Shown one piece after another: positions 26,084 to 60,080 of a DNA stretch of 64,000 bases; within the stretch, counting starts at the first letter, position 1; each line of letters begins with the position of its first letter. This DNA comes from a virus. Where the stretch lies: the IMG/VR virus record IMGVR_UViG_3300045974_000167, positions 19,560 to 83,559 of that record, one strand, 5' to 3'. The notes below the pieces were generated by a model. That model had not been told where the DNA came from. It saw only the letters and a list, made by a program, of their open reading frames with translations, and ran no database searches. A program made the position numbers and the translations under genes.

Positions 26084-27025
26084 ATGATGGAACAAAAAGA
26101 GATGTTCCCTGCGGTAACAGGGAACAGCCCAGCGCACCACTCCCAGGTGATGAGTGCGTTCATCAAGTGCATCCGGCTACGTCGAACCGACGACGCGGTG
26201 TACTGGTTCACGCACTTCAACCACTTCTGGCCGAAGGAACAGTTCCGGCTGACCCGCCGCATCCTGATCTGTTCAGCGGAAGATTGCATCGATGTCCCGG
26301 TGCAGAAGGAGGTCGCGGCGTGGTTTATCGGGGCCATCAATCAGAAGGATAGGACGGCGTGGTATCGTGGCGCTGTCGCCAAGATCCATCTGATTTGCGC
26401 CACACGTAACTGGTGGTGGCAACCGACCGGACGACGCTACGTCGTTCGATGGACGGAGACTGAACGAACACTGGGGCTCCTGCCGGAACTAACTAAGTCC
26501 GAGCTAGTAAAACTCCCTGTCGATTTCGATAAAGAGGGTGTAGCCCTAATTCAGCATATGCTACTCAATGCTGGATTTGAAGATTACAAGGCTAGAGGTG
26601 CATACGCTGCGATGCTTGAAGAGAGAGCGCGCACCACAGAAAATATGTCGGCGCGACTTTCTGCTGGAATCCATCGAAAGTACGCAAAGCTTCTCGGGAA
26701 GGATGAGAATTTCACGGGCCAAGCTCTGTATAAACTTGCCGGGGGAAGTCTTGGGATTAATGCTTACCCTGCAATAAAGGCAGAGGATGTCAGAGATTCC
26801 GTTCATAAGGCCCTAACGCGGTTGAAGAATCCAGAGAAGACGCCTTCATGGACCCACGACGGAATCCATTGCTATGGTAAAGATAGGCGATTTGCAGGCG
26901 TCCTTCGCAGTATGGTTGGATGCTGTAACGCATTTAGCCATTACGGACGCCTTGACCCCGCCGACGAATTCACTGAGGAAATGTATGAGCTCTCCAATGT
27001 CAGCTTCTCCCACAAGCTTCTTTAG
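26084..27025 (+). CDS. Stand-alone RarA/MgsA C-terminal-like helical protein (no ATPase domain)
   Basis: SAFIKCIR...DDAVYW...RRILICSAED resembles MgsA SAxxKSxRGSDxDAAxYW...RRLxxxASEDIG. Confidence 0.6.
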   Translation: MMEQKEMFPAVTGNSPAHHSQVMSAFIKCIRLRRTDDAVYWFTHFNHFWPKEQFRLTRRILICSAEDCIDVPVQKEVAAWFIGAINQKDRTAWYRGAVAKIHLICATRNWWWQPTGRRYVVRWTETERTLGLLPELTKSELVKLPVDFDKEGVALIQHMLLNAGFEDYKARGAYAAMLEERARTTENMSARLSAGIHRKYAKLLGKDENFTGQALYKLAGGSLGINAYPAIKAEDVRDSVHKALTRLKNPEKTPSWTHDGIHCYGKDRRFAGVLRSMVGCCNAFSHYGRLDPADEFTEEMYELSNVSFSHKLL

Positions 27026-27599
27026 GGATGATACAGAAACCCTGTACGTTGTCTCTGCCCATGAGCACGGGGCAACGTCCAAGGCCCTGTTCAGCCCAGA
27101 GGAATTGCACGATTCCCGTGTAGAACGCGCAGGGGAATTGCTCAAGATGGCGGCGGTGCAGGGGGATACTGTCCTAGATGTTGGATGCGGCTATGGCTCG
27201 CTAATTCCACACGTTCCGGCAGGTGTTAAGTATGTGGGGATGGACCCCAATCCAGCTTTTCTCAAAAAGGCAAGCGAGGATTACCCATCTACCTTGTTTA
27301 TCCACTCTGGGATTCCCCTGGCCGATAACATACCACCACCACTCTGCGATTACGTCGTTAGTCTCGGAGTTGCGTGTCACCTCATGTCCGGTGTCGCGTC
27401 CCTTGTTTGGTACGCTCATAAGCTCCAGTTAATGGCCCGTAAGGGCATCATTATCGAGATTCAAACACCAGCGTACAACGGCTCCTTCACCAAGTTTAGC
27501 ACGGAAGAGATCGTGCAGGCATTCTGCCAACGCATAAAAGCAGAGAATACACTATCCCACCCGAAGGATAGCGCCTCGACTTACCTGTTCTTCCTATGA
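26985..27599 (+). CDS. Class I SAM-dependent methyltransferase
   Basis: VLDVGCGYG, YVGMD, DYVVSLGV motifs. Confidence 0.8.
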   Translation: MSSPMSASPTSFFRDDTETLYVVSAHEHGATSKALFSPEELHDSRVERAGELLKMAAVQGDTVLDVGCGYGSLIPHVPAGVKYVGMDPNPAFLKKASEDYPSTLFIHSGIPLADNIPPPLCDYVVSLGVACHLMSGVASLVWYAHKLQLMARKGIIIEIQTPAYNGSFTKFSTEEIVQAFCQRIKAENTLSHPKDSASTYLFFL

Positions 27600-28198
27600 G
27601 CGTCCTAATCGTTAAAGCCTCACCCATCGAAAAGAAGTACAAGACAATTGCTGCCGATCCCCCGTGGGCTGAACACGGCGGCGGCAAGGTGCAGCGGGGG
27701 GCTGACCGGCACTATGACCTGATGAAAACTGCTGAGATTGCGGCGTTTGGTATGCGCGTGCAACTGATTGCAGATAAGGACGCCCACCTCTACCTTTGGG
27801 CCACGAACAACCACCTAGAGGATGCTCTATCCATCCTCCCCGCGTGGGGATTCAAGTTCGTGACAATGATTACGTGGGTCAAGGAAGGTAAACCCGGCCT
27901 GGGTCAATACTTCCGTGGACTTACTGAGCATTGCATCTTCGCCAAGCGCGGACAACCCACCTACCGCGTCGGAATCAACGGCAAGAGGGCACAAGGGCTT
28001 ACTGCACTTCTAGATGAAGGTCGCGGCCTCTGGTTCAAGGCCAAACGTGGCAAGCACTCTGAGAAACCTGCCCAGTTATACACTTGGGCACGTTCCGTTA
28101 GCCACGGACCCTACCTTGAAATGTTCGCCCGTGTCGCCCGCCCAGGTTGGGATAGCTGGGGAATCGAGGCCCCCACTTCTACCAAGGTCAATCTATGA
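27596..28198 (+). CDS. MT-A70 family N6-adenine methyltransferase
   Basis: ADPPW, HY.LM, HLYLWATN, WGF..ITWVK, GLGQYFRG.TEH, HSEKP, LEMFAR..RPGWDSWG. Confidence 0.92.
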   Translation: MSVLIVKASPIEKKYKTIAADPPWAEHGGGKVQRGADRHYDLMKTAEIAAFGMRVQLIADKDAHLYLWATNNHLEDALSILPAWGFKFVTMITWVKEGKPGLGQYFRGLTEHCIFAKRGQPTYRVGINGKRAQGLTALLDEGRGLWFKAKRGKHSEKPAQLYTWARSVSHGPYLEMFARVARPGWDSWGIEAPTSTKVNL

Positions 28199-28941
28199 AC
28201 AAGAACGAGATTTACACGGCTAATCAACCACTCTGTCTGGGTGGGCAGATTTATATGTGGAACCGGTATGCCAACGTTGGGCATATGGTTCACATGCCGG
28301 ATGCCCAATTCACCAAGGGCGGGCACATGAGCCGTATCGATTTCCTGGCCCCGGACGGGAAAGTGCAGCCAATGATCTTTCCCCTCAAGGACCGGTTCCT
28401 GACCCCCGTGAACGAGTGCCTACTGCACGAACAGGATAAGACTTTCAGGAAATTCTTTGGGACTATCCGTGCTCTGTACGCCAAGTTCTACTATTTCAAG
28501 ACCTACGAAGAAAAGCTGTATAGCCTTATCGAAGTATTAGACGGAACCTTGTTTTCCAAGCCAGTCAACCTAGCCACGTTGAATTCCTATCTCTGGAATT
28601 GGGTAGCGGAAGAAGTCGGTATCCGCAACGGCATCGAGCAGCATTACACCACCAAGCTAGGATTCGTGCGGCCCGATGACCCCTCCGAATGGGTGGCGAT
28701 GATGGGCGCTGCAATCGGTTGCAAGCTCTACCTCGGCGGCGGCACGGCAGCCAACGCCTACTTGAAGAAGGAACATTTCTCCAATAGGGGTATGGACTTC
28801 ATCTCCCAGGACTATAAGATGAAGCCATACCGTAGGACTAAGAGTCACATCAACGATAACGCTATGGTGTCAATCTTAGATCCTCTATTCATTGGGGGAC
28901 CGAACCTTGTCCAAGAACTTGTTGGAGTACCGGCTTGGTAG
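28195..28941 (+). CDS. WbqC-like protein
   Basis: ANQP, DAQFTKGG..SR, IRALYAK..YF, YLGG..A..YL, SILD.LF..G match the WbqC layout (HQP..., DDVQY, NR, YLSG, LSIID.LF..G). Confidence 0.72.
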   Translation: MNKNEIYTANQPLCLGGQIYMWNRYANVGHMVHMPDAQFTKGGHMSRIDFLAPDGKVQPMIFPLKDRFLTPVNECLLHEQDKTFRKFFGTIRALYAKFYYFKTYEEKLYSLIEVLDGTLFSKPVNLATLNSYLWNWVAEEVGIRNGIEQHYTTKLGFVRPDDPSEWVAMMGAAIGCKLYLGGGTAANAYLKKEHFSNRGMDFISQDYKMKPYRRTKSHINDNAMVSILDPLFIGGPNLVQELVGVPAW

Positions 28942-29856
28942 TTTCTTTGAACGATTCTGGTGCATTGTTTTCGGCCAACATCGCTACACAGAGAAAGCGC
29001 AGACATTCCCGGGCCGTAGGAAGACTTGGATTGGTCAAGATAACTACGTAGTTGACCCGGGGTTTATCGCTTCTTGGGAACAGTGTATTTACTGCGGAAA
29101 GCAGATTAACAAATCCTTCAGAGAGATAGAGTCGATTAACGACCCCTCTTACGAGCCCCCTAGACTATGACCAAGAGACATTTTCTAGAAGCCGCGATGC
29201 GTAGGGGGTACGCTCGCGTATACGTCTACGGTGAAACTTTGCCTAGACTGCTTTCATGGGACTTGGGTATGCCCGTGGAATTGAATAGTATGGGTATCAA
29301 GATGACCGTGATTCAAAACGACCTTCCAACTGAGATCGAGATCCCGTGGGACTCTATCTCTTCCATGGTAGCTCAGGATAGCGAGAGGTACCCGGAGGAT
29401 CTCAATGAGTAGCCTGATGGACTACCTCGACGCCCACGCTAATTTAGTGTATCTGCTACTCGGGCTGTGGTTATTAGCTTTCTTTGCCATGTGGTCGTTG
29501 GGGACATACCGGAAGCGCCGTAGGAGCCATCGGCATATCCTGCCGGGTCACACAAACGCTGTAGAGAAGACCGACGAAATCTGGTTGGATAAACTCAAAT
29601 AGGGGGCGTAATGTTTGTGAAGCGGAAGTTTGAACTAGCTTGGATTGAGGGAAACCCTGAAACGGGTCTGACGGTGGCGCGGAGGGAGTTTATCCTTGCT
29701 GGCGAAACCTTACAGATTAAGACGGAGGGCGGGATAGTTACCCTTGTGGTAACTTCTATCGGCGGGGATAAGCCCGTTGATGATAAAAAGGTGATGCAAA
29801 TCGTCACAGATCACATCATTGCCACCGACCCAAGCCCCTCCCCAAGCAAGCATTAG
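28892..29856 (+). other. Four small hypothetical CDSs (28892-29170, 29167-29412, 29405-29602 with 1 TM, 29611-29856)
   Basis: Abutting or overlapping + strand ORFs. Confidence 0.5.
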
Positions 29857-29884
29857 AATCTAACCACAAGATAACATTAGAGAA

Positions 29885-29918
29885 ACCCACAGGGACTTCG
29901 ACCCTTGTGGGTTTTTTT
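29885..29918 (+). terminator. Intrinsic terminator
   Basis: ACCCACAGGG-acttcga-CCCTTGTGGGT followed by TTTTTT. Confidence 0.8.
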
Positions 29919-29949
29919 ATGTTTGGACTTGAAGCCAACGGTAAATACC

Positions 29950-30476
29950 ATGTATATTCGAGGGCCTGGAGGAATCATTCTACCTATGGACAATTTTAGC
30001 GCACCACCTCCGAAGCCTGGCGACGGACTGAGCACCGTCTACCGAATCGGCGGCAAGCACCCCGGATTCAAGAAGTGTCGCCATTGCGGCGTAGCCGGAT
30101 ACGTTACAGAGCCGACTATTACGAAGGCACTCCGTAAGGGTCTAGAAGACGCCAAGTTTCAGATCGTTAGTGTTGCAAAGAAAGGTGAGCGTGAGGGTAC
30201 TTTCAACGTCATGCTCCGTCCGCTGATGAACATGCTTAGGTCGAAAGGAATGGTTGTTCGCTAATGGGATTCGCTACGTGCGGTAAAAGACTGCGGGCCG
30301 AATTAATCAAGCGCGGAGTCTCGGAGGCTACGTTCTCTTGGACTTCTGGAATTCCCCAAGGGGTTAAATCTGTCGAGAACACCCCTGAAGTTAGGAAATA
30401 TCTCCAGAATTTTAACATCAAGATCGATGATGTCGGCTGCGTCTGCCACGACAGCGGGGTCTGCGATTACAAATGA
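29950..30476 (+). other. Two small hypothetical CDSs (~29950-30264, 30264-30476)
   Basis: Coupled ORFs (TAATG), Cys motifs. Confidence 0.5.
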
Positions 30477-30516
30477 ACGCTGGTCAATGGTTCACTCCTA
30501 GTTTTATAATCTGACC

Positions 30517-31053
30517 ATGCCTTACGCCGACCCGGTAAAACGTAGAGAAGCGAATCGTCTTTGGGCGCGTAAATACCGCGAAAACAATAGAGAACTTGTT
30601 AATGCTGCGGCCAAAGAATACTACCACTCCAACCCCGCTTATCGTGCCAGGGCCATACAACTAGCAACCGCTAGGCAAGAATCTAACCCAGAAGCTAAAC
30701 GCGCCAGCGGCCAACGCTATTATCAGAATCATAAAGTAACACTTCGTAGTTACTACAAATCATGGACAAATACTCCTGATGGAAGACGTATTCGTAGGGA
30801 ACTAGAACAACGTAGACACGCATTAAAAACCGGTGCTCCCGGTGAGTTTACCAAGGAACAGTGGTTACAAAGAAAAAGCCTTTGGGGTGGAAAATGTTGG
30901 CTAAACTTGAATGGGTGCGCGTCCGTGGCAGGCTCTATTGACCATGTAATACCGCTTTCTAAGGGTGGAACCAATTGGCCCGCTAACTTGCGACCGGCTT
31001 GCCGAAGTTGCAATAGCAAGAAGAATGCACAGGATTGGCGGAAATATGTCTAA
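30517..31053 (+). CDS. HNH endonuclease
   Basis: IDHVIPLSKGGTNWPANLRPACRSCNSKK; own TATAAT just upstream; lower GC. Confidence 0.88.
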   Translation: MPYADPVKRREANRLWARKYRENNRELVNAAAKEYYHSNPAYRARAIQLATARQESNPEAKRASGQRYYQNHKVTLRSYYKSWTNTPDGRRIRRELEQRRHALKTGAPGEFTKEQWLQRKSLWGGKCWLNLNGCASVAGSIDHVIPLSKGGTNWPANLRPACRSCNSKKNAQDWRKYV

Positions 31054-32533
31054 CAGATTCCTAGTGGTTCCAACCATCGGACTCTGGAAATCACTCGCCA
31101 CCGATAGCTCGTTCGTCTTTATGATGAACACAGTTCGGAGGCTCATAGCACGAGGTAACTATGCCTACGTCGTCCTCCCCCGTGACATCGACATGGAGAA
31201 CGTGCCCAAGATTCCAGGGGTCATGTACTTTGTATGCGACGTACCTGCGAGGGCGCTCGACACGCAGATGGGAATCGTGGATCAAGCATTCATTTCAAAC
31301 ACCTTCGGGTTCCAGTACGGAAAGTACGTGGTTGACGCTGGGATTGTTCTGCACGGCTCTCAGGTACTACCACTCAAGGCCGCCGTCCATCCTAGAGGGC
31401 CTTTTGACTGTTTTCCTGTCTTTTGTCTTGAGCAGGGTGTTAGTTGGATTGATACTGCTCCTGGGTACGAGCCTGGAAGATATGATGAAGAACTGATGAT
31501 CCTGGGGGCCTCGTATTCCTACCTCTGCTGCGTATCCAAAAAAGACCTAGGGAGTTCTCTAGAAAAGGCCCGCCACTTCAACCTTAGCCATCAACAGTTC
31601 AACATTCTTAGGGAAAATGCCTTCGCGGGTGCGGCCCCTGTAGACGTACCCCTTATGCAATCGATTGCAGCGGAGACCAAGAAGAACGACACCACCACCC
31701 TGCTCTACGCCGCCAGAACAAACAAGACCAAACACCCTGAAGATATCGTCGAAATCTTCGATGCCCTATACAAACAGAATGAGCCCATCAACATTACTTA
31801 CGTCACTCAGACTTCACCTCTCAAGTTTGATGTCATCACTAAGAGGCGTCATCTCTTTGATGAGCGTGGATATATTGAGCCCCGTACGAGTTGCGGCCCG
31901 ATGGATTTCTACAAAGAAGCCGCCAAATCCCACGTTTACCTCTGCTGGTCGGATAGCGAGAGCTTCAATGCCTCTGCTGTTGAGGCTTCTCTTCTGGGTT
32001 GCGTGTATATGTGTCACGACACTAAGCCTCATCGTGATCTATATGATGGTGATCTGGGTGGGGACGTATTTTGGCTCCGCGACAAGGTGGACGCCATAGA
32101 GAAAGTGCGCTGGGTCATCCACCACTACGAAGAAGCTTACAAGATGCAGGCTCCCCTGCGGCAGAAATTCCTCGACCGCCAGATCGAAGGCGACCTCTCC
32201 AAGCACATCCATGAGAAAACCATCGAGTTTCATCGAGCTAACGTCAAAGGGACGCCCGGTAAGCTTTATTACTATAAGCTTGCGGAAAGTGCAGAACTTA
32301 CGAAAATTATCGATGGTTGTCTGTCGAATTGGGCAGATGAAACTATCGGCCTTGAGGATGTTCTTGTTTCCTTAGAATCCCACGGCGACGCCTTCTCGAC
32401 AGACAACCTATATCGAGCCATTTCACGAGTGATGCCGGTGAACTGGAACTTGCATCAAATGATGAAGCTGCACTATAACCTCCTCGACACCTGCGACAGC
32501 CGGTACCCCCGGTATAGGATCAAGAATGACTGA
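31046..32533 (+). CDS. GT-B fold (GT4-like) glycosyltransferase
   Basis: LLYAARTNKTKHPE and SHVYLCWSDSESFNASAVEASLLGC (E-x7-E donor-binding motif). Confidence 0.72.
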   Translation: MSNRFLVVPTIGLWKSLATDSSFVFMMNTVRRLIARGNYAYVVLPRDIDMENVPKIPGVMYFVCDVPARALDTQMGIVDQAFISNTFGFQYGKYVVDAGIVLHGSQVLPLKAAVHPRGPFDCFPVFCLEQGVSWIDTAPGYEPGRYDEELMILGASYSYLCCVSKKDLGSSLEKARHFNLSHQQFNILRENAFAGAAPVDVPLMQSIAAETKKNDTTTLLYAARTNKTKHPEDIVEIFDALYKQNEPINITYVTQTSPLKFDVITKRRHLFDERGYIEPRTSCGPMDFYKEAAKSHVYLCWSDSESFNASAVEASLLGCVYMCHDTKPHRDLYDGDLGGDVFWLRDKVDAIEKVRWVIHHYEEAYKMQAPLRQKFLDRQIEGDLSKHIHEKTIEFHRANVKGTPGKLYYYKLAESAELTKIIDGCLSNWADETIGLEDVLVSLESHGDAFSTDNLYRAISRVMPVNWNLHQMMKLHYNLLDTCDSRYPRYRIKND

Positions 32534-33257
32534 GCCTCTGAACAAAGAGAATGTGATGCGGGTGCCCATCGATTCCATCGAGCCGAACGATTGGAATCCT
32601 AACCAGATGCCCTCCCACCTGTTCAACGAGCTATCCCACGACATCGAAGAGGAGGGGATGGATCAGCCGGTAGTCGTGATTGAACGCGACGGCAAACGCA
32701 TCATCGTTGACGGCGAGCACCGTTACAGGGCCTCCAAAGCTGCCGGAAGAACGGACATCCTGATCTCTGTCCGCGACTACTCGGACGACGAGGCGAAAAT
32801 CCGGACAGTACGTAGAAACATGATTCACGGCACGACTGACCCCGCCAAGTTCACGAAACTCGTCATGGACTTGAACAATCGCGGCCTGCCTATCGATGAG
32901 ATTAAGCGGCGCATGGCTACCCCTGACAAGGAATTTATGAAGATGTACCAGGGGAACACCGCCGACAAATCCAAGAAAGCAGCCGAAGTCATTGCTGATG
33001 CTGAGAAGGGGGTTGCCCAGACCTTCCTCGTCGTCAACTTGTCCCAGATGATCAGGGATATCGTTGCCAAGTTCGGGGAAACCATCCAGCAGGGGTTCAT
33101 CGCCTTCTCCTACAAGGGACAGACTCACATGCTGATTTCGATGGACCCCAAACTCCACAAGGCTATGGTTGCCTTCAAATCGGCGGCGGAAGAGGATAAA
33201 CTGACTCAGGAACAAATCTCTGAGCGTCTAGCTAATGCTCTGATGAAGGCGTCGTAA
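32526..33257 (+). CDS. ParB/Srx N-terminal domain protein
   Basis: PNDWNPN.M, I.EEG..QPVVV, IVDGEHRYRA, RRN.IHG. Confidence 0.88.
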   Translation: MTEPLNKENVMRVPIDSIEPNDWNPNQMPSHLFNELSHDIEEEGMDQPVVVIERDGKRIIVDGEHRYRASKAAGRTDILISVRDYSDDEAKIRTVRRNMIHGTTDPAKFTKLVMDLNNRGLPIDEIKRRMATPDKEFMKMYQGNTADKSKKAAEVIADAEKGVAQTFLVVNLSQMIRDIVAKFGETIQQGFIAFSYKGQTHMLISMDPKLHKAMVAFKSAAEEDKLTQEQISERLANALMKAS

Positions 33258-34003
33258 TGACCGTCAAGTTCAACTCCCCATTCACCCCCAAGGTGATGCC
33301 AAAGATTGAGGATCTTCCCGGTGCCAAACCGGTTGACCTCAAGAAGCATAAGCGTACTGCCTCAGGGGAACTGCGGCGCGAACCCGCTGCGACCTCGGAA
33401 CGTCAGAAGGCTAAGGTAGAGGTCGAGGTAGCTGTTGAACGTGCGATTAAGACTGGCGAAATCGTCGTGCGGGAGAAGGGTGCAATCGTTGACACGACTG
33501 ACCCTGAGCTTAGAGAACACTTTGGTCGTATGTTGTTCATGGGGGCTACCCAAGACCTCATCTGCGAAGTCCTAAAGATCCAGCGGGACACCTACCGCCG
33601 ACTCAAGCGGCTGCACCTTGAATCCGTCGTAGAATCCCTTGCCGAAACCGGCGTGATGGGGATGGTTGCCCTCTCCTTCGACAAGATGGAGATGGCGTCT
33701 ACCAAAACCCTGCAACTCATCAACTCCCTTGGGGTATCGGAGAAGGACCGCGCCGACCTCATTGGTGCTGTCCGACTCTTAAAGGATATCGAAAACGATA
33801 AGGTGTCGATGCTCGTCAAGACGGGGGCAATCAAGGTGAAGAAGCGGGCCGAAATCTCCGCGCACCTTGAAGTTCTCTCCGGTAGCTCTCAGCCGCTCCT
33901 AACCGGTGAAAAGGCGCAGCAGGTTATGGTCAGGGTAATGGCCGACCTCGTTGATGCTATCGAGGACGACGATGAATCTGACGGCGGCGAAGAGAGCGAT
34001 TAG
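33257..34003 (+). CDS. Putative terminase small subunit
   Basis: HTH-like GATQDLICEVLKIQRDT plus helical oligomerisation region; overlaps the TerL start. Confidence 0.55.
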   Translation: MTVKFNSPFTPKVMPKIEDLPGAKPVDLKKHKRTASGELRREPAATSERQKAKVEVEVAVERAIKTGEIVVREKGAIVDTTDPELREHFGRMLFMGATQDLICEVLKIQRDTYRRLKRLHLESVVESLAETGVMGMVALSFDKMEMASTKTLQLINSLGVSEKDRADLIGAVRLLKDIENDKVSMLVKTGAIKVKKRAEISAHLEVLSGSSQPLLTGEKAQQVMVRVMADLVDAIEDDDESDGGEESD

Positions 34004-35792
34004 AGATGTAGCGCCGGAATACCGGCGTCACATGATGCTGTGCATCGAGGATGCGCTGCGGGGAGACAACCGCGCCCTCTCGAAGTACAAGCACATGCCC
34101 GTGGACGTTCGTACGTTCATCGAGGCTGATTATTACATGCAGTCTGTGACCGCTACCGGGCAGAAAATCATCTACCCGGAAGTGATGAAGCATCTCGTAG
34201 AAATCAATGAAGGTGACTACGACGAGGTTGTGCTAACAGGGGGCATCGGTGCTGCAAAATCCACTATTGGCGTCTATACTCAGGCGTATCAGCTCTACTT
34301 ACTTAGTTGTATGGCTGATCCTCAAGGTTACTTCGGCCTCGATCCCTCTTCCGAGATTGTCATCGTCTTCCAATCTCTTTCCAAGACGTTAGCGGAAGAG
34401 GTTGACTATGACCGGTTCCGGTCGATGGTGGAACGTACTCAATACTTCCAAGAGAAGTTCCCCCACAACAAATTCGTTGAGAACCAACTAGAGTTCCCGA
34501 ACCGCATCATCGTAAAACCAATCTCTGGTTTAGAGACAGGCGCAATCAGCCAAAACGTCATCGGGGGGATGATCGATGAAGTTAACTTCATGGCCGTTGT
34601 GGAAAAGTCTAAGATGGCGGATGGCGGTACTTACGACCAAGCGACTGCTCTTTACAATTCGATTGCACGCCGCCGTAAGTCGCGCTTCCTCAAAGCTGGG
34701 CGAATGCCTGGGCGACTTTGCTTGGTATCTTCTCGTCGTACTCCCGGTCAGTTTACGGATAAGAAAGAGGAAGAGGCTAAGTCCAACCCCAAGATTTACG
34801 TATATGACAAGCGTGTCTGGGAGATTAAGCCCCCCGGAACCTTCTCCAACGAAAGATTCCATATTTTTATCGGGGACGGAGCCCGACAGCCCCGGGTAAT
34901 TGCGGACGGGGAGATTATCTCAGAAGATGATCGGCACCTTATCGATGCCATCCCCATCGAGTTCAGGGCAGACTTCACCGATGACATCACCAAAGCCCTG
35001 CGTGATATTGCCGGTAAGAGCACGCTTGCCATACATCCGTTCATGCCTCGGCGGGAGGATGTGGCTGCTAACTTCGGGCGTCGTCCTAGCGTCTTCACGG
35101 TAGAGGTTTTCAACCAGCAGGGATTGAAACTTAGGATTCGGGATAACCTAGTTATTCGTAATCCTGATTGCCCCCGCTGGGTTCACATCGACTTAGGTAT
35201 TAGCAGCGACTCGGCGGGCCTCGTTATTGCTCACGTTCCTAAGTTCATGGAGATGAAAAGAGGGGAGGGTACAGAATACCTCCCCGTGATAGAGGTAGAT
35301 GGTGCCTTAGAGATTCCCCCTCCTCCGGGTAAGCGTGGGGAGATCGATTTCGCGGGCATCCGCCGAATCCTCTACAAGCTCCGGGACATGGGAATGCAGA
35401 TCAAGTGGGTCAGTCTTGACTCGTTCCAATCCACCGACACGATGCAGATCCTTAGAAGGAACGGGTTTATCGTAGGCTATCAATCGATAGATACGACTAA
35501 CGTGCCGTATGATTTAACGAAACAAGCCCTGTACGACCATCGGGTCATTGCCCCAGCCCATGAGAAACTGGTAAAAGAATTAGTGTCTCTAGAACGAGAC
35601 TTTAGGCGTGGGAAGGTAGACCACCCAGCCAAGGGGTCCAAGGATATCGCGGACTCGCTAGCTGGGGTTATTTTTGGCCTGAGTATGAGGCGTGATGTCT
35701 GGGCTCAACACCGTATTCCGCTATCCCAGGCAGTTTCAATCGCGTCCCATATCAATGACCATGAAGACTCAAGGAGTATCCCCCGTGAATAG
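33972..35792 (+). CDS. terL: Terminase large subunit
   Basis: VVLTGGIGAAKST, GGMIDEVNF, LVSS, nuclease HIDLG..SD, SLDSFQS, KVDHP..GSKDIADSLAG. Confidence 0.88.
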   Translation: MNLTAAKRAIRDVAPEYRRHMMLCIEDALRGDNRALSKYKHMPVDVRTFIEADYYMQSVTATGQKIIYPEVMKHLVEINEGDYDEVVLTGGIGAAKSTIGVYTQAYQLYLLSCMADPQGYFGLDPSSEIVIVFQSLSKTLAEEVDYDRFRSMVERTQYFQEKFPHNKFVENQLEFPNRIIVKPISGLETGAISQNVIGGMIDEVNFMAVVEKSKMADGGTYDQATALYNSIARRRKSRFLKAGRMPGRLCLVSSRRTPGQFTDKKEEEAKSNPKIYVYDKRVWEIKPPGTFSNERFHIFIGDGARQPRVIADGEIISEDDRHLIDAIPIEFRADFTDDITKALRDIAGKSTLAIHPFMPRREDVAANFGRRPSVFTVEVFNQQGLKLRIRDNLVIRNPDCPRWVHIDLGISSDSAGLVIAHVPKFMEMKRGEGTEYLPVIEVDGALEIPPPPGKRGEIDFAGIRRILYKLRDMGMQIKWVSLDSFQSTDTMQILRRNGFIVGYQSIDTTNVPYDLTKQALYDHRVIAPAHEKLVKELVSLERDFRRGKVDHPAKGSKDIADSLAGVIFGLSMRRDVWAQHRIPLSQAVSIASHINDHEDSRSIPRE

Positions 35793-36435
35793 TGGGAATA
35801 ATTGTTTAGGGCGAACTGTTCTAGTCATTGGGGCACATCCCGACGATTTGGAAATGAATGCCGGTGGGACAATCCATAAACTAATCCAATCTGGAGCAGT
35901 GGTATCCACTACAGTTTTAGCTAGCCATACCACCTTCAATGGTGATAGATTACTCGAATCAAACCGCGCCCAAATCAAATTGGGTATCGTCGGGATGGAG
36001 TTTGCTGGAGGGATTGACACTAAATTAGCTGATTCTAAGGCCATGTTAATTGATCTTCTTGATAGTAAGATAAAGATCATCAAACCGGATACAGTCATCA
36101 CCCATTTTCACGCTGATACGCATCAAGATCATGCCGCCTGCTACGATATCGTAATGGCGGCAGCGCGTTGTGTACCAAACATCCTGCTGTTCAAGCCGAC
36201 GTTTCCATCAGGCAGACCCGACATCCCGTTTCACCCTAACTTCATCAGCAAGCTCTCCGACGAGAATATGATCGCTAAGATTTCTGCCATGAGCGAGTTC
36301 GTATCTCAGCGTAATAAATACGGAGAGGATAAGTGGCTTGAATCCCTTAAGTCTACTGCGGCGGGCGATGCTTGGACGTATGGTGGCTTCCACGGGTATG
36401 CGGAAATCTTTCAAGTCTCACGTTTAATGGGGTAG
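35785..36435 (+). CDS. PIG-L/LmbE family de-N-acetylase
   Basis: VLVIGAHPDDLE..AGGTI, R..E, ITH..ADTHQDH. Confidence 0.9.
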   Translation: MNSGNNCLGRTVLVIGAHPDDLEMNAGGTIHKLIQSGAVVSTTVLASHTTFNGDRLLESNRAQIKLGIVGMEFAGGIDTKLADSKAMLIDLLDSKIKIIKPDTVITHFHADTHQDHAACYDIVMAAARCVPNILLFKPTFPSGRPDIPFHPNFISKLSDENMIAKISAMSEFVSQRNKYGEDKWLESLKSTAAGDAWTYGGFHGYAEIFQVSRLMG

Positions 36436-36444
36436 TGCAATCAA

Positions 36445-36909
36445 TTGCACGGAGGGCGTGTGGGAGTAACCTTAAGAACACAAAAATCTGAACGTCCGGT
36501 TGAGAGCCTGACGTTAGATGAAGCGATTGCTGAAAGGCAACGCTTAGTTAAAACTACGATGGACGCGCAGGATGAACTCAGCGACCGAAATCGTATCGGA
36601 ACCGATGGAAAAAGGATCTCTGCCCACGACTACTGGGCGTGGCACCGTACTGTATCGAAGGTAGTCCGCGACAATCAACACCGCATGGGTTTACTGCGTG
36701 AACACATCAGAAAGATGCGGCAGCGTTCGTCTGTCGCAGAGGCCAAGGTTGAGGACGTAACTGATCGGGGCCTACTCAAATCAGCATACGAACTGCTCTG
36801 CACGCTTGCTAGAGAAGATGTTGATTTTGATGCTCACGAACAGGCTCTCATGGACGTTATCCGAGAACGCATCCAGGGAACCTCACCAGTTAATGGAGGT
36901 CGTAAATGA
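36445..36909 (+). CDS. Hypothetical coiled-coil protein
   Basis: GGAGG RBS near GTG; coupled to tmk. Confidence 0.6.
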   Translation: MHGGRVGVTLRTQKSERPVESLTLDEAIAERQRLVKTTMDAQDELSDRNRIGTDGKRISAHDYWAWHRTVSKVVRDNQHRMGLLREHIRKMRQRSSVAEAKVEDVTDRGLLKSAYELLCTLAREDVDFDAHEQALMDVIRERIQGTSPVNGGRK

Positions 36910-37610
36910 TTTTCGTGCTTGAGGGGTTGGATGGGTGTGGCAAGGGGACACAAGCCGAAATTCTAATCAAGAGTCTGCTGAAAACAGATCCGACAACCGG
37001 ACTAGTAAAGTTTCCCGACTACACGACGCCCATCGGGAGACTGTTGCAGGATTGGATGCACGGAATGATCGGGGTCTGTGCAACCGACGAAGCACCCATC
37101 GTTCCCCTTCCCGGCCAGAGCGCACTCGCCCTACAGGCTATTCTCCTAGCAAACAAGACGGAGCAGGCCGACCTCTTGTGGGGTTATAAAACCATCGGAA
37201 ACCTCGTAGTAGACCGGTACTGGCAGTCGGGCGTTGCCTACGGTGCGGGCGTTGATGGTTTGGACTACGATTACATGGTCCGAATCAATAGAGGACTACC
37301 CGCCGCCGATATCAACTTCCTTATCAATATCCCTGTCTCAGTAGCTTTAGAACGTCAGGCTTTACGCGGCCGTAAGGATATCTACGAAGGCCGTCGTGAT
37401 GCGCGTGATGCGATGGAGCGGTGCAACACCGCGTACGTCCAGTTGTGGGCTAGAATGGCAAATCGTGATCCCACTGCTTGGGTAGTAGTTGATGGAACTC
37501 GTCCCCGTGATGAAGTGGCAGCCATGATTCTCGCGGAAGTAATGGCGTTCAAACAAGCACGAGATCCTAGCTGGCTGGCCGACGACTCTCATCCAGTTAG
37601 TGCGATTTGA
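36906..37610 (+). CDS. tmk: Thymidylate kinase
   Basis: VLEGLDGCGKGTQ, KFPDY.TPIG, VVDRYWQSGVAYG. Confidence 0.9.
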   Translation: MIFVLEGLDGCGKGTQAEILIKSLLKTDPTTGLVKFPDYTTPIGRLLQDWMHGMIGVCATDEAPIVPLPGQSALALQAILLANKTEQADLLWGYKTIGNLVVDRYWQSGVAYGAGVDGLDYDYMVRINRGLPAADINFLINIPVSVALERQALRGRKDIYEGRRDARDAMERCNTAYVQLWARMANRDPTAWVVVDGTRPRDEVAAMILAEVMAFKQARDPSWLADDSHPVSAI

Positions 37611-37654: not shown

Positions 37655-38131
37655 ATGGCTATCCACGGACTAGCAGCGAGACCCTCCCCCACCCCCATCC
37701 GGGATCCCGTAGTAGTAGAGAGACTGCCTAGTACGGAGAAGGACATCAAGTCTCCCTTCCGCGCAACTCCTGGCTCCGCTGGCCTAGATTGGTCCCTTCC
37801 TAGGGACGTTTCCATCTGGCCCGGACAGACCTTGGTTATTCCCTCAGGATTCAAGATCGAGATCCCGCATGGACTCGTCGGCCTGATGCGTACGAGGTCA
37901 TCCTCACGTAAGCGAGGGCTGTCCGTGGATGGCACCATCGATAGCGATTACCGTGGCGAGGTAGGAATCAGCCTAAGAAATCTTACGACTGAGCCTATCT
38001 GTGTTAAGCGAGGAGAAAGAATCGCCCAGATGGTAATCGTAGATGCCCACCTATATATCAATGTAATCGAGGGGCATGTTAATATGAACACCGTCCGAGG
38101 CGAGGGCGGCTTCGGCTCGACGGGGGTATAA
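37655..38131 (+). CDS. dut: dUTPase (trimeric)
   Basis: SAGLD, RSS, GTIDSDYRGE, GERIAQ, RGEGGFGSTG. Confidence 0.95.
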   Translation: MAIHGLAARPSPTPIRDPVVVERLPSTEKDIKSPFRATPGSAGLDWSLPRDVSIWPGQTLVIPSGFKIEIPHGLVGLMRTRSSSRKRGLSVDGTIDSDYRGEVGISLRNLTTEPICVKRGERIAQMVIVDAHLYINVIEGHVNMNTVRGEGGFGSTGV

Positions 38132-38172: not shown

Positions 38173-38664
38173 ATGAGGGAACTACAAATCTCAAAGGGTT
38201 GTACCGCTTTAGTAGATGACGAAGATTTTGAGTTAGTTTCAAAATGGAGATGGTCGTATTGTAAGGGGTACGCCGTTAGGCGAGAGCGTTACGGGCCTCG
38301 TAAAGAGAACCGAGCCAAGTGGATATACCTACATAGATTCGTGTTGGGGCTCACGGATAACTCTGGATTATCCACCGATCATATAAATCGTAACCGTTTA
38401 GACTGTAGAAAAGAGAATCTACGATTAGTTTCTCACAGAGAAAATTGTCTCAACACCCCCAAGAAAACATACAAGCACGGAGCGTCCTCTAAATACAAAG
38501 GAGTTTCTTTCAACAAGAAACTTAAGAAATGGCGCGCTAGAGTGTACGAGCATGGAAAAGAAATGCTGGTTGGGAATTTCCTAACTGAAGACGAGGCCGC
38601 ATTAGCGTATAATGCTATGGTTACGAAGCTGCGTGGTAATCTAGCCACGCTAAACGCGGTTTAA
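38173..38664 (+). CDS. HNH homing endonuclease with AP2 domain
   Basis: ALVDDEDFE, LHRFV, DHINRNRLDCRKENLR, SSKYKGVS...KWRA...EAALAYN. Confidence 0.9.
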   Translation: MRELQISKGCTALVDDEDFELVSKWRWSYCKGYAVRRERYGPRKENRAKWIYLHRFVLGLTDNSGLSTDHINRNRLDCRKENLRLVSHRENCLNTPKKTYKHGASSKYKGVSFNKKLKKWRARVYEHGKEMLVGNFLTEDEAALAYNAMVTKLRGNLATLNAV

Positions 38665-38961: not shown

Positions 38962-39079
38962 CTGCAACTGATTGCAGGACGGACGCCCCAAAATGTAGGG
39001 GTGTCCGTCTTTCGTTTTGCAGAACGTTGTGCGATGCTCACCATCTCACGACGCCCGCACACCCATGGAGGGATTATTA

Positions 39080-42517: not shown

Positions 42518-42599
42518 GGTGTCCTGGCGGAAATGGTAGACGCGCTAGCCTTAGGAGCTAGTGCCGAAAGGCGTGAGGGTTCGATTCCCTCGGACACTA
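42518..42599 (+). tRNA. tRNA-Leu (anticodon TAG)
   Basis: GGTGTCC/GGACACT acceptor; CTAGC-CTTAGGA-GCTAG anticodon arm; long variable arm; TTCGATT T-loop. Confidence 0.93.
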
Positions 42600-42605
42600 C
42601 TTCAC

Positions 42606-42687
42606 GGGACTGTGGCGAAACTGGTAGACGCATGGGACTTAAAATCCCCCGCCGAAAGGCATCCCGGTTCGATTCCGGGCAGTCCTA
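42606..42687 (+). tRNA. tRNA-Leu (anticodon TAA)
   Basis: GGGACTG/CAGTCCT acceptor; CTTAAAA loop; variable arm; TTCGATT. Confidence 0.92.
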
Positions 42688-42691
42688 TCTT

Positions 42692-42767
42692 GCCTCCATA
42701 GCTCAGTTGGTAGAGCAGCGGGCTTTTAACCCGTTGGTCGTAGGTTCAAATCCTACTGGGGGTACCA
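42692..42767 (+). tRNA. tRNA-Lys (anticodon TTT)
   Basis: GCCTCCA/TGGGGGT acceptor; CTTTTAA loop; TTCAAAT; encoded CCA. Confidence 0.95.
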
Positions 42768-42773
42768 TTTTTC

Positions 42774-42848
42774 AGTCCCTTAGCTCAGAGGTAGAGCGAG
42801 GCCCTTACAAGGCTTAGGTCGTCGGTTCGATCCCGACAGGGGCTACCA
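42774..42848 (+). tRNA. tRNA-Val (anticodon TAC)
   Basis: AGTCCCT/AGGGGCT acceptor; CTTACAA loop; TTCGATC; encoded CCA. Confidence 0.95.
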
Positions 42849-42900
42849 GTTGCAATCGATTGCAGATGTAGGTTAATAGTAGTCAAACCGGTGAGAACAT

Positions 42901-57579: not shown

Positions 57580-57851
57580 CAGACAGCACGAGACTCTAGG
57601 TGGCTGGGAGGAAAGAAAGATAGGAAGGCTGGTACCCAGTACGAGACTATGGCTAGCTGGGTAGGAGTAGCAAGAAAGATAGAAGGAGCAGCAAAGCAAG
57701 ACAAGAAAGGAAAGCAAGAAAGAAGTAGAAAGACTGGAAAGACGAGAAAGAAAGACAGCAGGAGAAAGACGAGAGTGAGATCGAGACTATGGCTGGGTAG
57801 GTAGGTGAGCATAGCGAGGTAAGGCAGGCTGGGCGAGCGAGGCTGGACAAG
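57580..57851 (+). repeat. AG-saturated purine tract with CGAGACT(A/C)T repeats
   Basis: For example AGAAGTAGAAAGACTGGAAAGACGAGAAAGAAAGACAGCAGGAGAAAGACGAGAGTGAGA; ends abruptly at 57851. Confidence 0.8.
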
Positions 57852-58343
57852 ACCGTTTTTTCAAAATCGACCGACCTGCTCTGTCTACTTTGCGTCGGCA
57901 CGCCTTTTTCCCGTGCCAAAACGAACGCCCCTTTCCGTGTCGTGTGCGTTCGGTACGTGTCCCGTGTCTTTTGCCCCACCCAACATGACCCATCTGTTTT
58001 CATGCACTTACCTCGTTTCTTGCGTGTACCATGCGTCTTTTGCCCCAACCATGCCCCACCCCCCCGCGCCCCTTGACGTTCCAACATGTTGAAATCACTG
58101 CAAACGATTGCGCCCGTGTTTCGGCACGGTCGCTGCAATGACTCCGGAATGTCGTTGTTGAATCTTCGGTCCCGCCGCTGAAAATCGGACCTGCGAACGA
58201 CCGACCCGGCCCCCGGCAATCGACCCGAAACCCGAAAAAACGTTCTCGGAACGTGCCTTTGCGGTGTTTCGGCATACCCCAACGGATCGACCGTTGAACC
58301 TTGAACGGCGACCGAAACCCGTTGTATCCATACGGAAAATCAA

Positions 58344-59150
58344 ATGAAAATCTCGAAATCGGAACGTCGCGCCCGCCTCGTTGCCTCGAACGCCGCTCTG
58401 CATGCTGCGGCGGTCGCTGCGGTCGTTGCGGACCCCGAATCTCCCGAAACCGAATCCATCCTCATGATGAACGCCGGCGCCGATGTTCCGCCGGTCACGC
58501 CTGCGGATGTCGCTGCGGCGTCCGCTGATGCCCCGCCATGCGACGCACCGGTCGCGGTCGATGCTCCGGCCCCGGACGCCCCTGCGGACGCCCCTGCGGT
58601 ACCGGTGCGCTCCGACGTTCGATACTCCGCGCCTCGACTGTCGATGCCGGTCGGAACCCTGATTCCGGTCGGTGCGAATCACACCGGTACCCGCGGCATC
58701 TCCCGGCGGTACCTGTACGCGATTCCCGGCGGTGACTTCCTCGCGACCGGTGATTCCCGCCTCCCCTCGTCCCTCGAATCCATCGACCTTGCCCTGTCGA
58801 TGATCGACGACGCTGCGACGCTGATCGAACGCACCGATTCGACCACGTTCGCACCGACGGTCGATGCCTGCGGCTTGCGGTACGGTGCGTCACCGCGCCA
58901 TGCAACGACACACGCCGCGATGCGACTTGATGCGCATGACTTCGCGGTCTCGTTCACGGCCCGCGTGATCGATTCGGTCCCGCCCGGACTGCGGCCCGCC
59001 TCGTGCCATTCGGTCCTGTCGCGCCTCCCCGGCGCACGGTCGAACCACGCCGATGCGTCGGCCCGCCTCTCCTTCGTTCGTACCATCGCGGTGAACGTTC
59101 GGACGCTTCTCGCTGCTGACGCTGCGGCCGTGACCGCTCCGACGGTCTAA
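58344..59150 (+). CDS. Hypothetical protein encoded entirely without AG; candidate first-expressed factor
   Basis: 268 aa with no Trp or Gln and only two Lys (AAA); basic N-terminus, Ala/Pro/Asp linker, globular C-domain; strong terminator directly after the stop. Confidence 0.72.
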   Translation: MKISKSERRARLVASNAALHAAAVAAVVADPESPETESILMMNAGADVPPVTPADVAAASADAPPCDAPVAVDAPAPDAPADAPAVPVRSDVRYSAPRLSMPVGTLIPVGANHTGTRGISRRYLYAIPGGDFLATGDSRLPSSLESIDLALSMIDDAATLIERTDSTTFAPTVDACGLRYGASPRHATTHAAMRLDAHDFAVSFTARVIDSVPPGLRPASCHSVLSRLPGARSNHADASARLSFVRTIAVNVRTLLAADAAAVTAPTV

Positions 59151-59158
59151 CGTGACTT

Positions 59159-59214
59159 GACCGACGGTTGTGCATGCCTTCCATGACATGCGCAACCGTC
59201 GGTCTTATTTTTTT
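59159..59214 (+). terminator. Strong intrinsic terminator
   Basis: GACCGACGGTTGTGCATG / CATGCGCAACCGTCGGTC 18-bp stem followed by TTATTTTTTT. Confidence 0.85.
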
Positions 59215-59398
59215 CGCCCGTTGGGATGTGCTCACATGAGGGGGGATATTTTGGTGTGATTTGACAAACGGGAATCTGACTTCCCACGCAAGCGGTTGCG
59301 GGAGGGGAAATGTTTAGGGTGAGGGGAACAGGGTGGGGGGTCGTTGGGGGACAGGAGGAAAAATTTTAGGGGCTCCTTTTCGACTTAGATGAAATGAA

Positions 59399-59472: not shown

Positions 59473-60080
59473 ATGTCTGACCCTGTTGACAGGATGTGCG
59501 AGTGTGGGCACCTTGAATCCCGGCATGGCTACACCTCGTCTGGGCAGTTTACTTGTAACGACCCCCTGTGTATGTGCAGGGTGAACTTCAAGCCTGTAGA
59601 GGTTGCTCACGTTGCTCTATCCGGCTCGATTGTGGGCAAGGGTTCGATGAAGTAATCCTGTTGTAAGAAGCCTCAATGGAGTGAGGATGGACCGTTCGGC
59701 TATCAATGGGGAATTCGCTCGACATAGAGTCGTGGCGGGTTCCCCTTTTACTACTGACTTCGCGTTGGAAGAAATCTACAGGGCGTGGGTGGAGCTTTCT
59801 AAACCTACTGACTGTTGGATTGGGTATGACCTAGACAACGAACACAAACGGATAATCTCCGTTGTGAGGAAAGAGGCTGAGGATGAAGGAGAAGGAGTCG
59901 GCCTACGAAGCGTTGATGGTGGCGAAGCATTATGTGGGTAAGGGGTGCGGGGATAACTCTTGCCTACTCGTTAGACCTACTGGAATGGCTACGAATGGCG
60001 GGTGCCGGTGTGCGAACCGGCCTGCGGTGTTCTCCGCGCTGTGCAGGCTATTCCGCGCAAGCATGGAGGAGAATTCGTGA
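59473..60080 (+). other. Three small CDSs (59473-59655, 59681-59941, 59883-60080)
   Basis: RBS-preceded ORFs; Cys motifs (CECGH; GMATNGGCRC). Confidence 0.5.

Follow-up and report, generated by a model that had tools for sequence, protein, structure and literature searches.

A glycosyltransferase-ParB cassette beside the terminase genes of an IMG/VR phage record: a candidate amino-sugar tailoring pathway that may act on DNA

The window analyzed here is the last 64 kb (64,000 nucleotides) of the linear 83,559-bp IMG/VR record IMGVR_UViG_3300045974_000167, which has a CheckV completeness of 87%; all cassette coordinates are window positions on the + strand. Two Logan contigs that match it come from pond metagenomes, one of which may be its source. 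With the recombination genes RecA and RuvC on one side and packaging and nucleotide genes on the other, and remote from the tail genes, the window was found to carry a cassette in which a glycosyltransferase (GT) and a ParB-like protein lie together with the terminase genes, a PIG-L deacetylase, a WbqC-family protein and methyltransferases. A megablast search of the region against phages gave no match, and literature searches yielded nothing about the cassette, about phage WbqC proteins or about modified DNA in the relatives that infect Vibrio or Rhodobacter. The locus is laid out as follows.

26084-27025, + strand: unk313, a conserved cassette member of 313 amino acids (aa), all-alpha
26985-27599, + strand: class I S-adenosylmethionine (SAM) methyltransferase of small-molecule type; Pfam Methyltransf_12/25/11 (weak scores), motif I VLDVGCGYG
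27596-28198, + strand: MT-A70 DNA N6-adenine methyltransferase; PF05063 1.5e-22, phrog_359 1e-49, DPPW at residue 21
28195-28941, + strand: WbqC-family protein, a putative N-acyl/aminoacyl transferase; PF08889 8.5e-21
28892-30476, + strand: run of small open reading frames (ORFs) without a family
29900-29913: weaker terminator-like hairpin, between the upstream and downstream units
30481-30510, + strand: promoter-like site TGGTCA-18-TATAAT, the best of the region by consensus match only, just 5' of the HNH gene
30517-31053, + strand: HNH endonuclease; PF01844 4.6e-10
31046-32533, + strand: GT4-like GT-B glycosyltransferase, by fold and motifs
32526-33257, + strand: ParB_N (CTPase-type) protein; PF02195 3.6e-13, GEHRYRA box
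33257-34003, + strand: putative small terminase subunit (TerS), 248 aa, by its position before TerL; phrog_25054, function unknown
33972-35792 (start possibly 33954), + strand: large terminase subunit (TerL), by tblastn to annotated TerLs
35785-36435, + strand: PIG-L/LmbE de-N-acetylase, BshB-like; PF02585 1.7e-17, AHPDD and HQDH motifs, GTG start
36460-36909, + strand: 149-aa protein overlapping tmk by 4 nucleotides (nt)
36906-37610, + strand: tmk (thymidylate kinase); PF02223 4.9e-18
37655-38131, + strand: dut (dUTPase); PF00692 1.2e-29
38976-39011: strong terminator-like hairpin with a 14-bp stem, its first base being the last base of a palindrome copy at 38963-38976 (described below)

Pfam and motif checks showed that the genes named in the first-pass annotation exist on the + strand with intact catalytic motifs. 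The chain of overlapping genes that it described, running from the GT through ParB, TerS and TerL to PIG-L, was confirmed and is headed in addition by the HNH gene (HNH/GT 8 nt, GT/ParB 8, ParB/TerS 1, TerS/TerL 32, TerL/PIG-L 8). The placing of the SAM methyltransferase, MT-A70 and WbqC genes upstream, where SAM methyltransferase/MT-A70 and MT-A70/WbqC each overlap by 4 nt, and of tmk and dut downstream, holds as well. No portal gene follows TerL, as had also been noted, and PF04860 is absent throughout the 83.6-kb record (87% complete); a remote portal is known in this phage family too, since the portal gene of phage DLP3 opens its record, ~23 kb beyond TerL. The promoter-like site and the two hairpins, which are consensus matches only, suggest two transcription units: an upstream one with unk313, SAM methyltransferase, MT-A70 and WbqC, and a downstream one of ~30.5-39.0 kb with HNH, GT, ParB, TerS, TerL, PIG-L, the 149-aa ORF, tmk and dut. 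All cassette proteins are predicted to be soluble, with no membrane protein among them, and the 149-aa protein could not be assigned to a family with Pfam, NCBIfam or PHROGs.

The cassette, whose start had earlier been put at 26985, is real and conserved, with a conserved sixth gene, unk313, lying just outside that boundary. The set unk313-SAM methyltransferase-WbqC-GT-ParB-TerS-TerL plus PIG-L is kept across three lineages in which the identity of the GT is just 26-30%. Carriers of the full set are an 87-kb metagenome contig (L006/L007) and the Vibrio phages VH2_2019, V-YDF132 and PG28, and the 8-nt GT/ParB and TerL/PIG-L overlaps are retained in the contig (L006). Every examined cultured phage with this ParB type, including the Arthrobacter phages, has a GT 0-2 genes upstream. 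In 17 phage records that match this ParB over its full length the GT was detected by tblastn, and in another 2 through annotation and BLAST; three near-identical RcF-type records lie outside this count. The GTs of the DLP5, RcZahn, KarBoss, Rhizobium, JP1, RcTiptonus and Arthrobacter phages form one family with this GT, on the basis of an hhalign probability of 99% for DLP5 and Rhizobium and of HMM, tblastn, BLAST or fold matches for the others. Vibrio phage R21Y, with a 49%-identical TerL, was found to be without the GT and without any ParB_N. The genes surrounding the GT differ between the carriers:

DLP5, DLP3, Summit, RcZahn and KarBoss: deacetylase, short-chain dehydrogenase/reductase (SDR) of dehydratase/epimerase type, aminotransferase and methyltransferase (gene names from DLP5, DLP3 and RcZahn)
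Rhizobium RHph_Y1_11: N-acyltransferase, SDR and aminotransferase
Agrobacterium JP1 and the RcTiptonus group: only a DprA-like gene
Arthrobacter Kelleziovirus: GT, a small ORF and ParB, with the terminase genes ~5 kb off, across the record ends

This co-occurrence over lineages identifies the GT (~490 aa) plus ParB as the constant unit, the link to terminase being frequent and not universal. The description of the pathway as packaging-linked is not supported, as the constant partner of the GT is ParB, not terminase, and the Arthrobacter pair stands apart from the terminase genes. The tailoring sets are interchangeable, at least two being known, and unk313, SAM methyltransferase, WbqC and PIG-L make up one of them.

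The AlphaFold2 model of the GT (predicted local distance difference test, pLDDT, 92.3) has the two-Rossmann-domain GT-B fold, and its best solved matches in Foldseek are BshA (3mbo), MshA, PimA, WaaG, PglA and LmbT (E ~1e-11, TM-score up to 0.73). The EX7E motif is present at E305-x7-E313, and R224 and K229 are invariant or nearly so across 34 homologs. Against Pfam Glycos_transf_1 the protein scores 19.9 bits, under the 26.4-bit gathering cut-off, and the GT4-like assignment therefore rests on fold and motifs; the GT-B/GT4 call of the first-pass annotation stands on those two grounds (BshA and MshA being nearest) and not on Pfam membership. The GT belongs to a small, divergent, phage-type sister family of GT4 and is not a curated Pfam member. 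An exhaustive phmmer search over 1.8 billion representative proteins recovered only 98 relatives, nearly all of 450-530 aa. A PDB profile search, with Gtf1/GtfA (4pqg) among its matches, matched the GT only in the donor domain, the N-terminal (acceptor) domain being family-specific.

The partner protein has a clear ParB_N domain (49.8 bits vs. a cut-off of 26.3) with the GxxRxxA nucleotide box as GEHRYRA, in which G63, H65 and R66 are invariant among 10 orthologs. Its PDB profile matches span only residues 4-131 and Pfam sees only ParB_N, leaving a C-terminal domain that is unique to the protein. No recognizable helix-turn-helix was identified by Pfam or PDB profiles, which a divergent DNA-binding domain might escape. 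TerL matched 352 records, with 47-53% identity by tblastn over >90% of its length to annotated TerLs (~52% to those of DLP5, Summit and RcZahn); it has no Pfam match and only a weak one to phrog_2. The putative TerS matches nothing in Pfam or NCBIfam, and the call rests on its slot before TerL and on its acidic tail. By eye the sequence appears helical, with the acidic tail at the C-terminus, and weak homologs occupy the equivalent slot in the metagenome contig (L007), in VH2_2019 (L003) and in a further record (L004). The possibility that this protein is a hidden dioxygenase was considered and rejected, on account of that apparent helical character, the acidic tail and the lack of an HxD...H pattern.

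Among the tailoring genes, the earlier assignment of PIG-L as a deacetylase was borne out (64.6 bits vs. a cut-off of 28.2), with the zinc motifs AHPDD at 17 and HQDH at 113 and with BshB as its best match (NCBIfam TIGR04001 BshB1 1.5e-14; PDB 2ixd 7e-8). PIG-L/LmbE enzymes act on acceptor-linked N-acetylglucosamine (GlcNAc), for example GlcNAc-PI, GlcNAc-Ins and GlcNAc-malate. No Cys ligase of the BshC/MshC type was found among the cassette proteins by Pfam or NCBIfam. The WbqC protein is likewise a firm family member (75.2 bits vs. 21.3), its Atlas structure having a TM-score of 0.84 to WbqC clusters that include phage WbqC-GNAT fusions, and homologs are present in the metagenome contig (L007) and in VH2, the cassette of VH2_2019 having two WbqC paralogs (L003 5931-6668 and 8256-9002). 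A role for WbqC as a glycine transferase to an amino sugar has been proposed. The family (PF08889) is described as functionally uncharacterized (PMC5532660). Homologs of the SAM methyltransferase adjoin WbqC in both L007 and VH2_2019.

The model of unk313 is all-alpha (AlphaFold2 pLDDT 92), and its residues 17-110 resemble the C-terminal domain of MgsA/RarA (2r9g; VIA Z 10.9, root-mean-square deviation 1.3 Å over 91 residues, next unrelated row Z 6.3), a domain which to our knowledge occurs only in the replication-associated MgsA/RarA. The remainder is without a structural match and contains an invariant DGIHxxGxDxRFAG motif. Homologs in the equivalent position have 37% (L007) and 29% (VH2_2019) identity, and several homologs bear an N-terminal SWIM zinc finger. 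An oxygenase function for unk313 was rejected: questin oxidase and hydroquinone dioxygenase, the VIA matches that would suggest it, reach only Z 5.4-5.8, a noise-level value for helical proteins. The 371-375-aa "AAA-ATPase" of RcZahn and Rhizobium was also rejected as an unk313 homolog, hhalign being not significant and only an SxFxKxxRRG-like motif being shared by eye.

MT-A70, although a sound family match (80.8 bits vs. 23.9), lies outside the conserved set and is absent from the L007 and VH2 cassettes; it is clearly a lineage-specific insertion found in this phage only, and its inclusion in the pathway was not upheld. The HNH gene at the head of the overlap chain is absent from the corresponding position in relatives and is probably a mobile insertion. 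A second homing-type endonuclease (HNH_3 plus AP2 domain) lies 3' of dut at 38173-38664.

The window has 19 copies of a 14-bp palindrome, TGCAA-N4-TTGCA, vs. 0.04 expected. Four copies are inside the cassette (27759, 28710, 31656 and 36436) and others are found elsewhere, e.g., at 2091, 5197, 18483, 22641, 42851 and 47964 and at 38963-38976. A non-palindromic variant, TGCAACTGATTGCA, has 9 copies, each time in + orientation. The palindrome is dispersed in 8 proteobacterial GT-ParB genomes with 9-33 copies each, this one included: 21 in this genome, 31 in DLP5, 33 in JP1, 27 in RcTiptonus, 15 in RHph_Y1_11, 10 in VH2_2019 and 9 in RcZahn, with DLP3 also among the carriers. KarBoss, in which GT-ParB is present, has 2 copies together with 8 of TTGCA-N6-TGCAA. 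R21Y, with no GT-ParB, has 0 copies, and a reversed-pattern control gave 0 in all genomes counted. In Arthrobacter phage BeatusComedenti there is no clear palindrome, CCCGG-N4-CCGGG having 7 copies vs. a null maximum of 4. There is thus a dispersed DNA site tied to the presence of the module, GT, ParB and palindrome being jointly absent in R21Y. The copy at 42851 adjoins a tRNA cluster at 42518-42848 (Leu(tag), Leu(taa), Lys(ttt) and Val(tac)), ~6 kb past the PIG-L stop.

A stretch free of AG dinucleotides, to which the first-pass annotation had tied the pathway as the source of a mark in AG/DGG context, is real: the + strand has no AG for 1,389 bp (57850-59239), whereas no other dinucleotide is missing for more than 279 bp. 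Nothing was found that links this island to the cassette, relatives not having been examined for it, and the tie to an AG/DGG mark is unsupported. The ORF inside it (58344-59150) has no family, and just past it, at 60002-61921, are three tandem overlapping GT-A/GT2-like ORFs (232, 207 and 203 aa; phrog_1574, weak Glyco_trans_2_3). These three ORFs (60.0-61.9 kb) were rejected as part of the conserved module as they have no match in five relatives. When 45 window ORFs were scanned jointly, single weak-to-moderate matches were obtained to hemerythrin (1.5e-10), ArdA antirestriction (0.003), YspA-type SLOG (7e-4) and MerR (6e-4).

Some features of the relatives may also be recorded. In DLP5 (73394-73921) and DLP3 (73827-74354) a divergent ThyX-like ORF (Thy1, E ~2e-6, at the cut-off) stands right after TerL, the slot held here by PIG-L, and RcZahn has a true ThyX (75922-76539; 1e-58). 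It is possible that these ORFs provide a handle-making enzyme, in the DLP3, DLP5 and RcZahn lineages only. Between TerL and DNA polymerase I, RcZahn, R21Y, RHph_Y1_11 and DLP3 have a pyruvate-phosphate-dikinase-like gene followed by 1-2 tyrosine-phosphatase-like genes; the dikinase-phosphatase pair occurs in VH2_2019 too and was not seen in the present, incomplete record. The methyltransferase of the DLP3 cassette, DLP3_099 (MT110073.1; L045 17295-17975), is annotated as Erm, and the DLP3 authors attribute erythromycin resistance to it on the basis of differences in lysogen minimum inhibitory concentration at high drug, a test that is not gene-specific.

A sugar-transfer and tailoring pathway is proposed. 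From its fold and motifs, the GT would take N-acetylhexosamine from a UDP-sugar and attach it to a macromolecular acceptor, at a hydroxyl or another nucleophile. The BshB-like PIG-L, whose family acts on GlcNAc conjugates, would then strip the N-acetyl group after transfer and bare an amine, which WbqC would N-acylate, possibly with an aminoacyl group, the class I methyltransferase methylating the product; this last step is modeled on BshC/MshC and on a Streptomyces ProRSx-GT4-WbqC-LmbE-tRNA operon. The same operon offers a lead, by analogy, that acylation by WbqC may depend on aminoacyl-tRNA (PMC10404621). Bacillithiol/mycothiol logic together with the bacterial GT4-WbqC-LmbE operon makes the order of transfer, deacetylation and N-acylation reasonable, so that in the sugar pathway proposed by the first-pass annotation the sequence of steps is plausible (BshA/MshA logic; PMC10404621), while support is lacking for its DNA acceptor, for which no hydroxyl-handle enzyme was found. 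The ParB-like protein would serve as a DNA-side activator or loader, a role comparable to that of ParB with phage T-dioxygenases and of DpdB with DpdA.

The phage's own DNA is our best guess for the acceptor of the GT, a guess that falls a little short of probable. The cassette as a whole is read, just as tentatively, as a GT4-type retaining glycosyltransferase with an obligate ParB-N partner and amino-sugar tailoring, expressed late and acting on DNA, probably sparsely; if DNA is the acceptor, the mark would probably be sparse or site-directed, not a full base replacement. That ParB-like proteins partner DNA-modifying enzymes, as had been claimed, is documented (PMC13229309, PMC10164549). The phage T-dioxygenases (5mYOX) need a ParB partner on double-stranded DNA, this partner having a nucleoside triphosphate (NTP) box and a C-terminal domain and no obvious DNA-binding domain (O'Toole et al., PNAS 2026, PMC13229309), and DpdA requires the ParB-like partner DpdB (PMC10164549). 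DNA glycosylation has been demonstrated for phage GT-B enzymes whose folds are BshA/MshA/PglH-like and whose neighbors include ParB, terminase, epimerase and methyltransferase genes (Pyle et al., bioRxiv 2023.12.21.572611 / Cell Rep 2024), and the neighbors of phage 5mYOX genes include GTs (31%), ParBs (27%) and terminases (19%) (PMC13229309). The ParB sequence here, with an NTP box and no recognizable helix-turn-helix, resembles the 5mYOX-activating ParBs and may be counted in favor of DNA, as may the embedded DNA methyltransferase, the replication-factor domain of unk313, the position between RecA/RuvC and the packaging and nucleotide genes, the lack of a membrane protein and the dispersed palindrome that goes with the module.

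A number of observations weigh against DNA as the acceptor. No ThyA (PF00303), ThyX (PF02511) or TET/JBP (PF12851) was found in the record (87% complete), and ten complete relatives likewise have neither ThyA nor TET/JBP; no TGT-family protein was found in the record, nor any 2-oxoglutarate oxygenase among 45 further ORFs. Divergent 5mYOXs may escape Pfam (PMC13229309). With no 5mYOX or ThyS homolog in the record or in the ten complete relatives, the known hydroxyl-handle step appears to be absent. The enzymes whose solved folds are nearest to the GT have small molecules or lipids as substrates, T4 DNA glucosyltransferases do not appear among the best 50 Foldseek matches, and the GT is mildly acidic (pI 6.1). 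The share of 6-bp palindromes with an observed/expected ratio <0.5 is 0.50 in this genome, 0.42 in VH2, 0.47 in KarBoss and 0.55 in DLP5 vs. 0.43 in the GT-less R21Y. In this genome AGATCT, AGGCCT, CGCGCG, CTGCAG, GGGCCC and GTCGAC have 0 copies vs. 18-26 expected, and GAATTC, TCTAGA, GGATCC, GGTACC and CCCGGG have 21-32 copies each. A bulky genome-wide adduct blocking type II enzymes is argued against by this, as it should relax palindrome avoidance, yet avoidance is equal with and without the GT.

The one experimental hint of DNA modification comes from DLP3, whose DNA is reported to be uncut by 15 restriction enzymes (PMC7326821). Its genome, however, has no site for ten of the 15 (BamHI, HindIII, KpnI, SphI, PstI, SacI, SalI, ApaI, SpeI and XhoI) and a single one for XbaI, which makes this resistance a weak hint. 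The remaining enzymes have 4 (NdeI), 7 (EcoRI), 18 (ClaI, 15 of which overlap GATC) and 68 (SmaI) sites; the inference of modified DNA in DLP3 rests on these four, and methylation could explain them.

A more specific form of the DNA reading would dispense with a hydroxylase altogether: ParB would bring the GT to the chromosome, the TGCAA-N4-TTGCA sites being possible docking points of ParB or of another protein, and N-acetylhexosamine would be set there without an intermediate on a canonical base, or else on a novel handle. After loss of the N-acetyl group, WbqC would aminoacylate the sugar, possibly from aminoacyl-tRNA, and the outcome would be a cationic self-mark at few sites and not an anti-restriction coat. 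In this full form we consider the proposal unlikely.

A similarly unlikely alternative is that the substrate of the GT is a phage protein (of the capsid, tail or portal, or else ParB or TerS), which it O-glycosylates, with PIG-L, WbqC and the methyltransferase tailoring the glycan and co-expression with the late packaging genes only setting the timing. GT4 includes protein O-GlcNAc transferases, Gtf1/GtfA 4pqg being among the profile matches of the GT, and phage-encoded virion glycosylation is known from mycobacteriophages. The SDR and aminotransferase sets of the relatives, in one case with an N-acyltransferase, presumably resemble bacillosamine-type protein-glycosylation pathways. That no DNA hydroxylase was found and that palindrome avoidance is indifferent to the GT also count in favor of this alternative. 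The constant partner of the GT, however, is a ParB-N protein and not a structural gene, and in this phage family the cassette is remote from capsid and tail genes. The documented roles of ParB-like proteins as enzyme partners mostly concern DNA, though ParB/Srx-fold serine kinases and sulfiredoxin exist.

Somewhat less likely still is a small-molecule or host-envelope product, i.e., a bacillithiol/mycothiol-like or aminoglycoside-like glucosamine conjugate, or a change to an undecaprenyl-linked glycan (lipopolysaccharide, LPS, or pilin) serving host takeover or superinfection exclusion. To this belong the nearest folds of the GT (BshA, MshA, PimA, WaaG, PglA, LmbT), the BshB-like deacetylase and weak matches of the ParB protein to ParB/Srx-fold free-serine kinases. 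Both DLP3 and DLP5 attach to type IV pili, and we take it that pilin glycans use similar sugars. LPS seroconversion was suggested by the DLP3 authors (PMC7326821). A product of this kind sits poorly with a cassette that has no membrane protein, flippase, oligosaccharyltransferase or thiol-ligase (BshC/MshC) homolog and a GT whose N-terminal acceptor domain is family-specific, and genes translationally coupled to those of a terminase operon, in phages that are described as lytic, do not have a moron layout. The idea that no single pathway exists and that the RuvC-terminase site is a hot spot for unrelated accessory genes, as MT-A70 and HNH, clearly lineage-specific insertions, the tailoring sets that vary by lineage and the Erm-like rRNA methylase reading of the DLP3 cassette methyltransferase might suggest, is highly improbable, as five enzymes recur together with order and overlaps kept at 26-30% GT identity, GT4, WbqC and LmbE co-occur in bacteria too, and GT-ParB adjacency spans phyla.

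If DNA is the acceptor, the cassette would represent a widespread means of hypermodifying phage DNA that uses neither of the known routes to the base sugar handle, and it would extend ParB-like activators from dioxygenases to glycosyltransferases. Phages with the module infect Vibrio, Stenotrophomonas, Rhizobium, Agrobacterium, Rhodobacter and Arthrobacter; several of the carriers are cultured, with R21Y as a natural module-less comparison, and some have been put forward for therapy or biocontrol. That palindromes are avoided equally whether or not the module is present cautions against presuming an anti-restriction role.

When the DNA reading is set beside known systems, the T4 alpha- and beta-glucosyltransferases are comparable as GT-B phage enzymes that put sugar on phage DNA late in infection, but they depend on 5-hydroxymethylcytosine, which a ThyA homolog supplies, and have neither a ParB partner nor a deacetylase. 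In the 7-deazaguanine Dpd system (PMC10164549) DpdA, the enzyme partnered by DpdB, is a base-swapping transglycosylase and not a sugar transferase, and the present phage has no TGT-family protein. The Streptomyces operon ProRSx-GT4-WbqC-LmbE-tRNA(ProX)-murG (PMC10404621, Fig. 2) has the GT4, WbqC and LmbE/PIG-L families together, and its own aminoacyl-tRNA synthetase and dedicated tRNA suggest aminoacyl-tRNA-dependent acylation; it is bacterial, its product is unknown and it is without ParB or terminase, while the phage cassette is without the synthetase. With the bacillithiol and mycothiol pathways (BshA-B-C, MshA-B-C) the cassette would share a GT4 retaining GlcNAc transferase, a PIG-L/LmbE deacetylase acting on the conjugate, and acylation of the amine. 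It differs in having no Cys ligase, with WbqC in that logical slot, in a GT acceptor domain that is unrelated by sequence, and in being phage-encoded, paired with ParB and placed inside a terminase operon, so that it is like the pathway and not a member of it. The closest likeness is to 5mYOX/ThyS phage DNA glycosylation, where a BshA/MshA/PglH-like GT-B enzyme also has ParB-like, terminase, epimerase, O-methyltransferase and amino-acid transferase neighbors, and where the ParB homolog, with an NTP-binding domain, a C-terminal domain and no obvious DNA-binding domain, is the activator of the modifying enzyme. The PIG-L/WbqC tailoring seen here is not described in bioRxiv 2023.12.21.572611 or PMC13229309. 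Relative to published phage DNA glycosylation this would be a hydroxylase-less version, in which no 5mYOX or thymidylate-synthase homolog was found and the ParB protein is paired with the GT itself.

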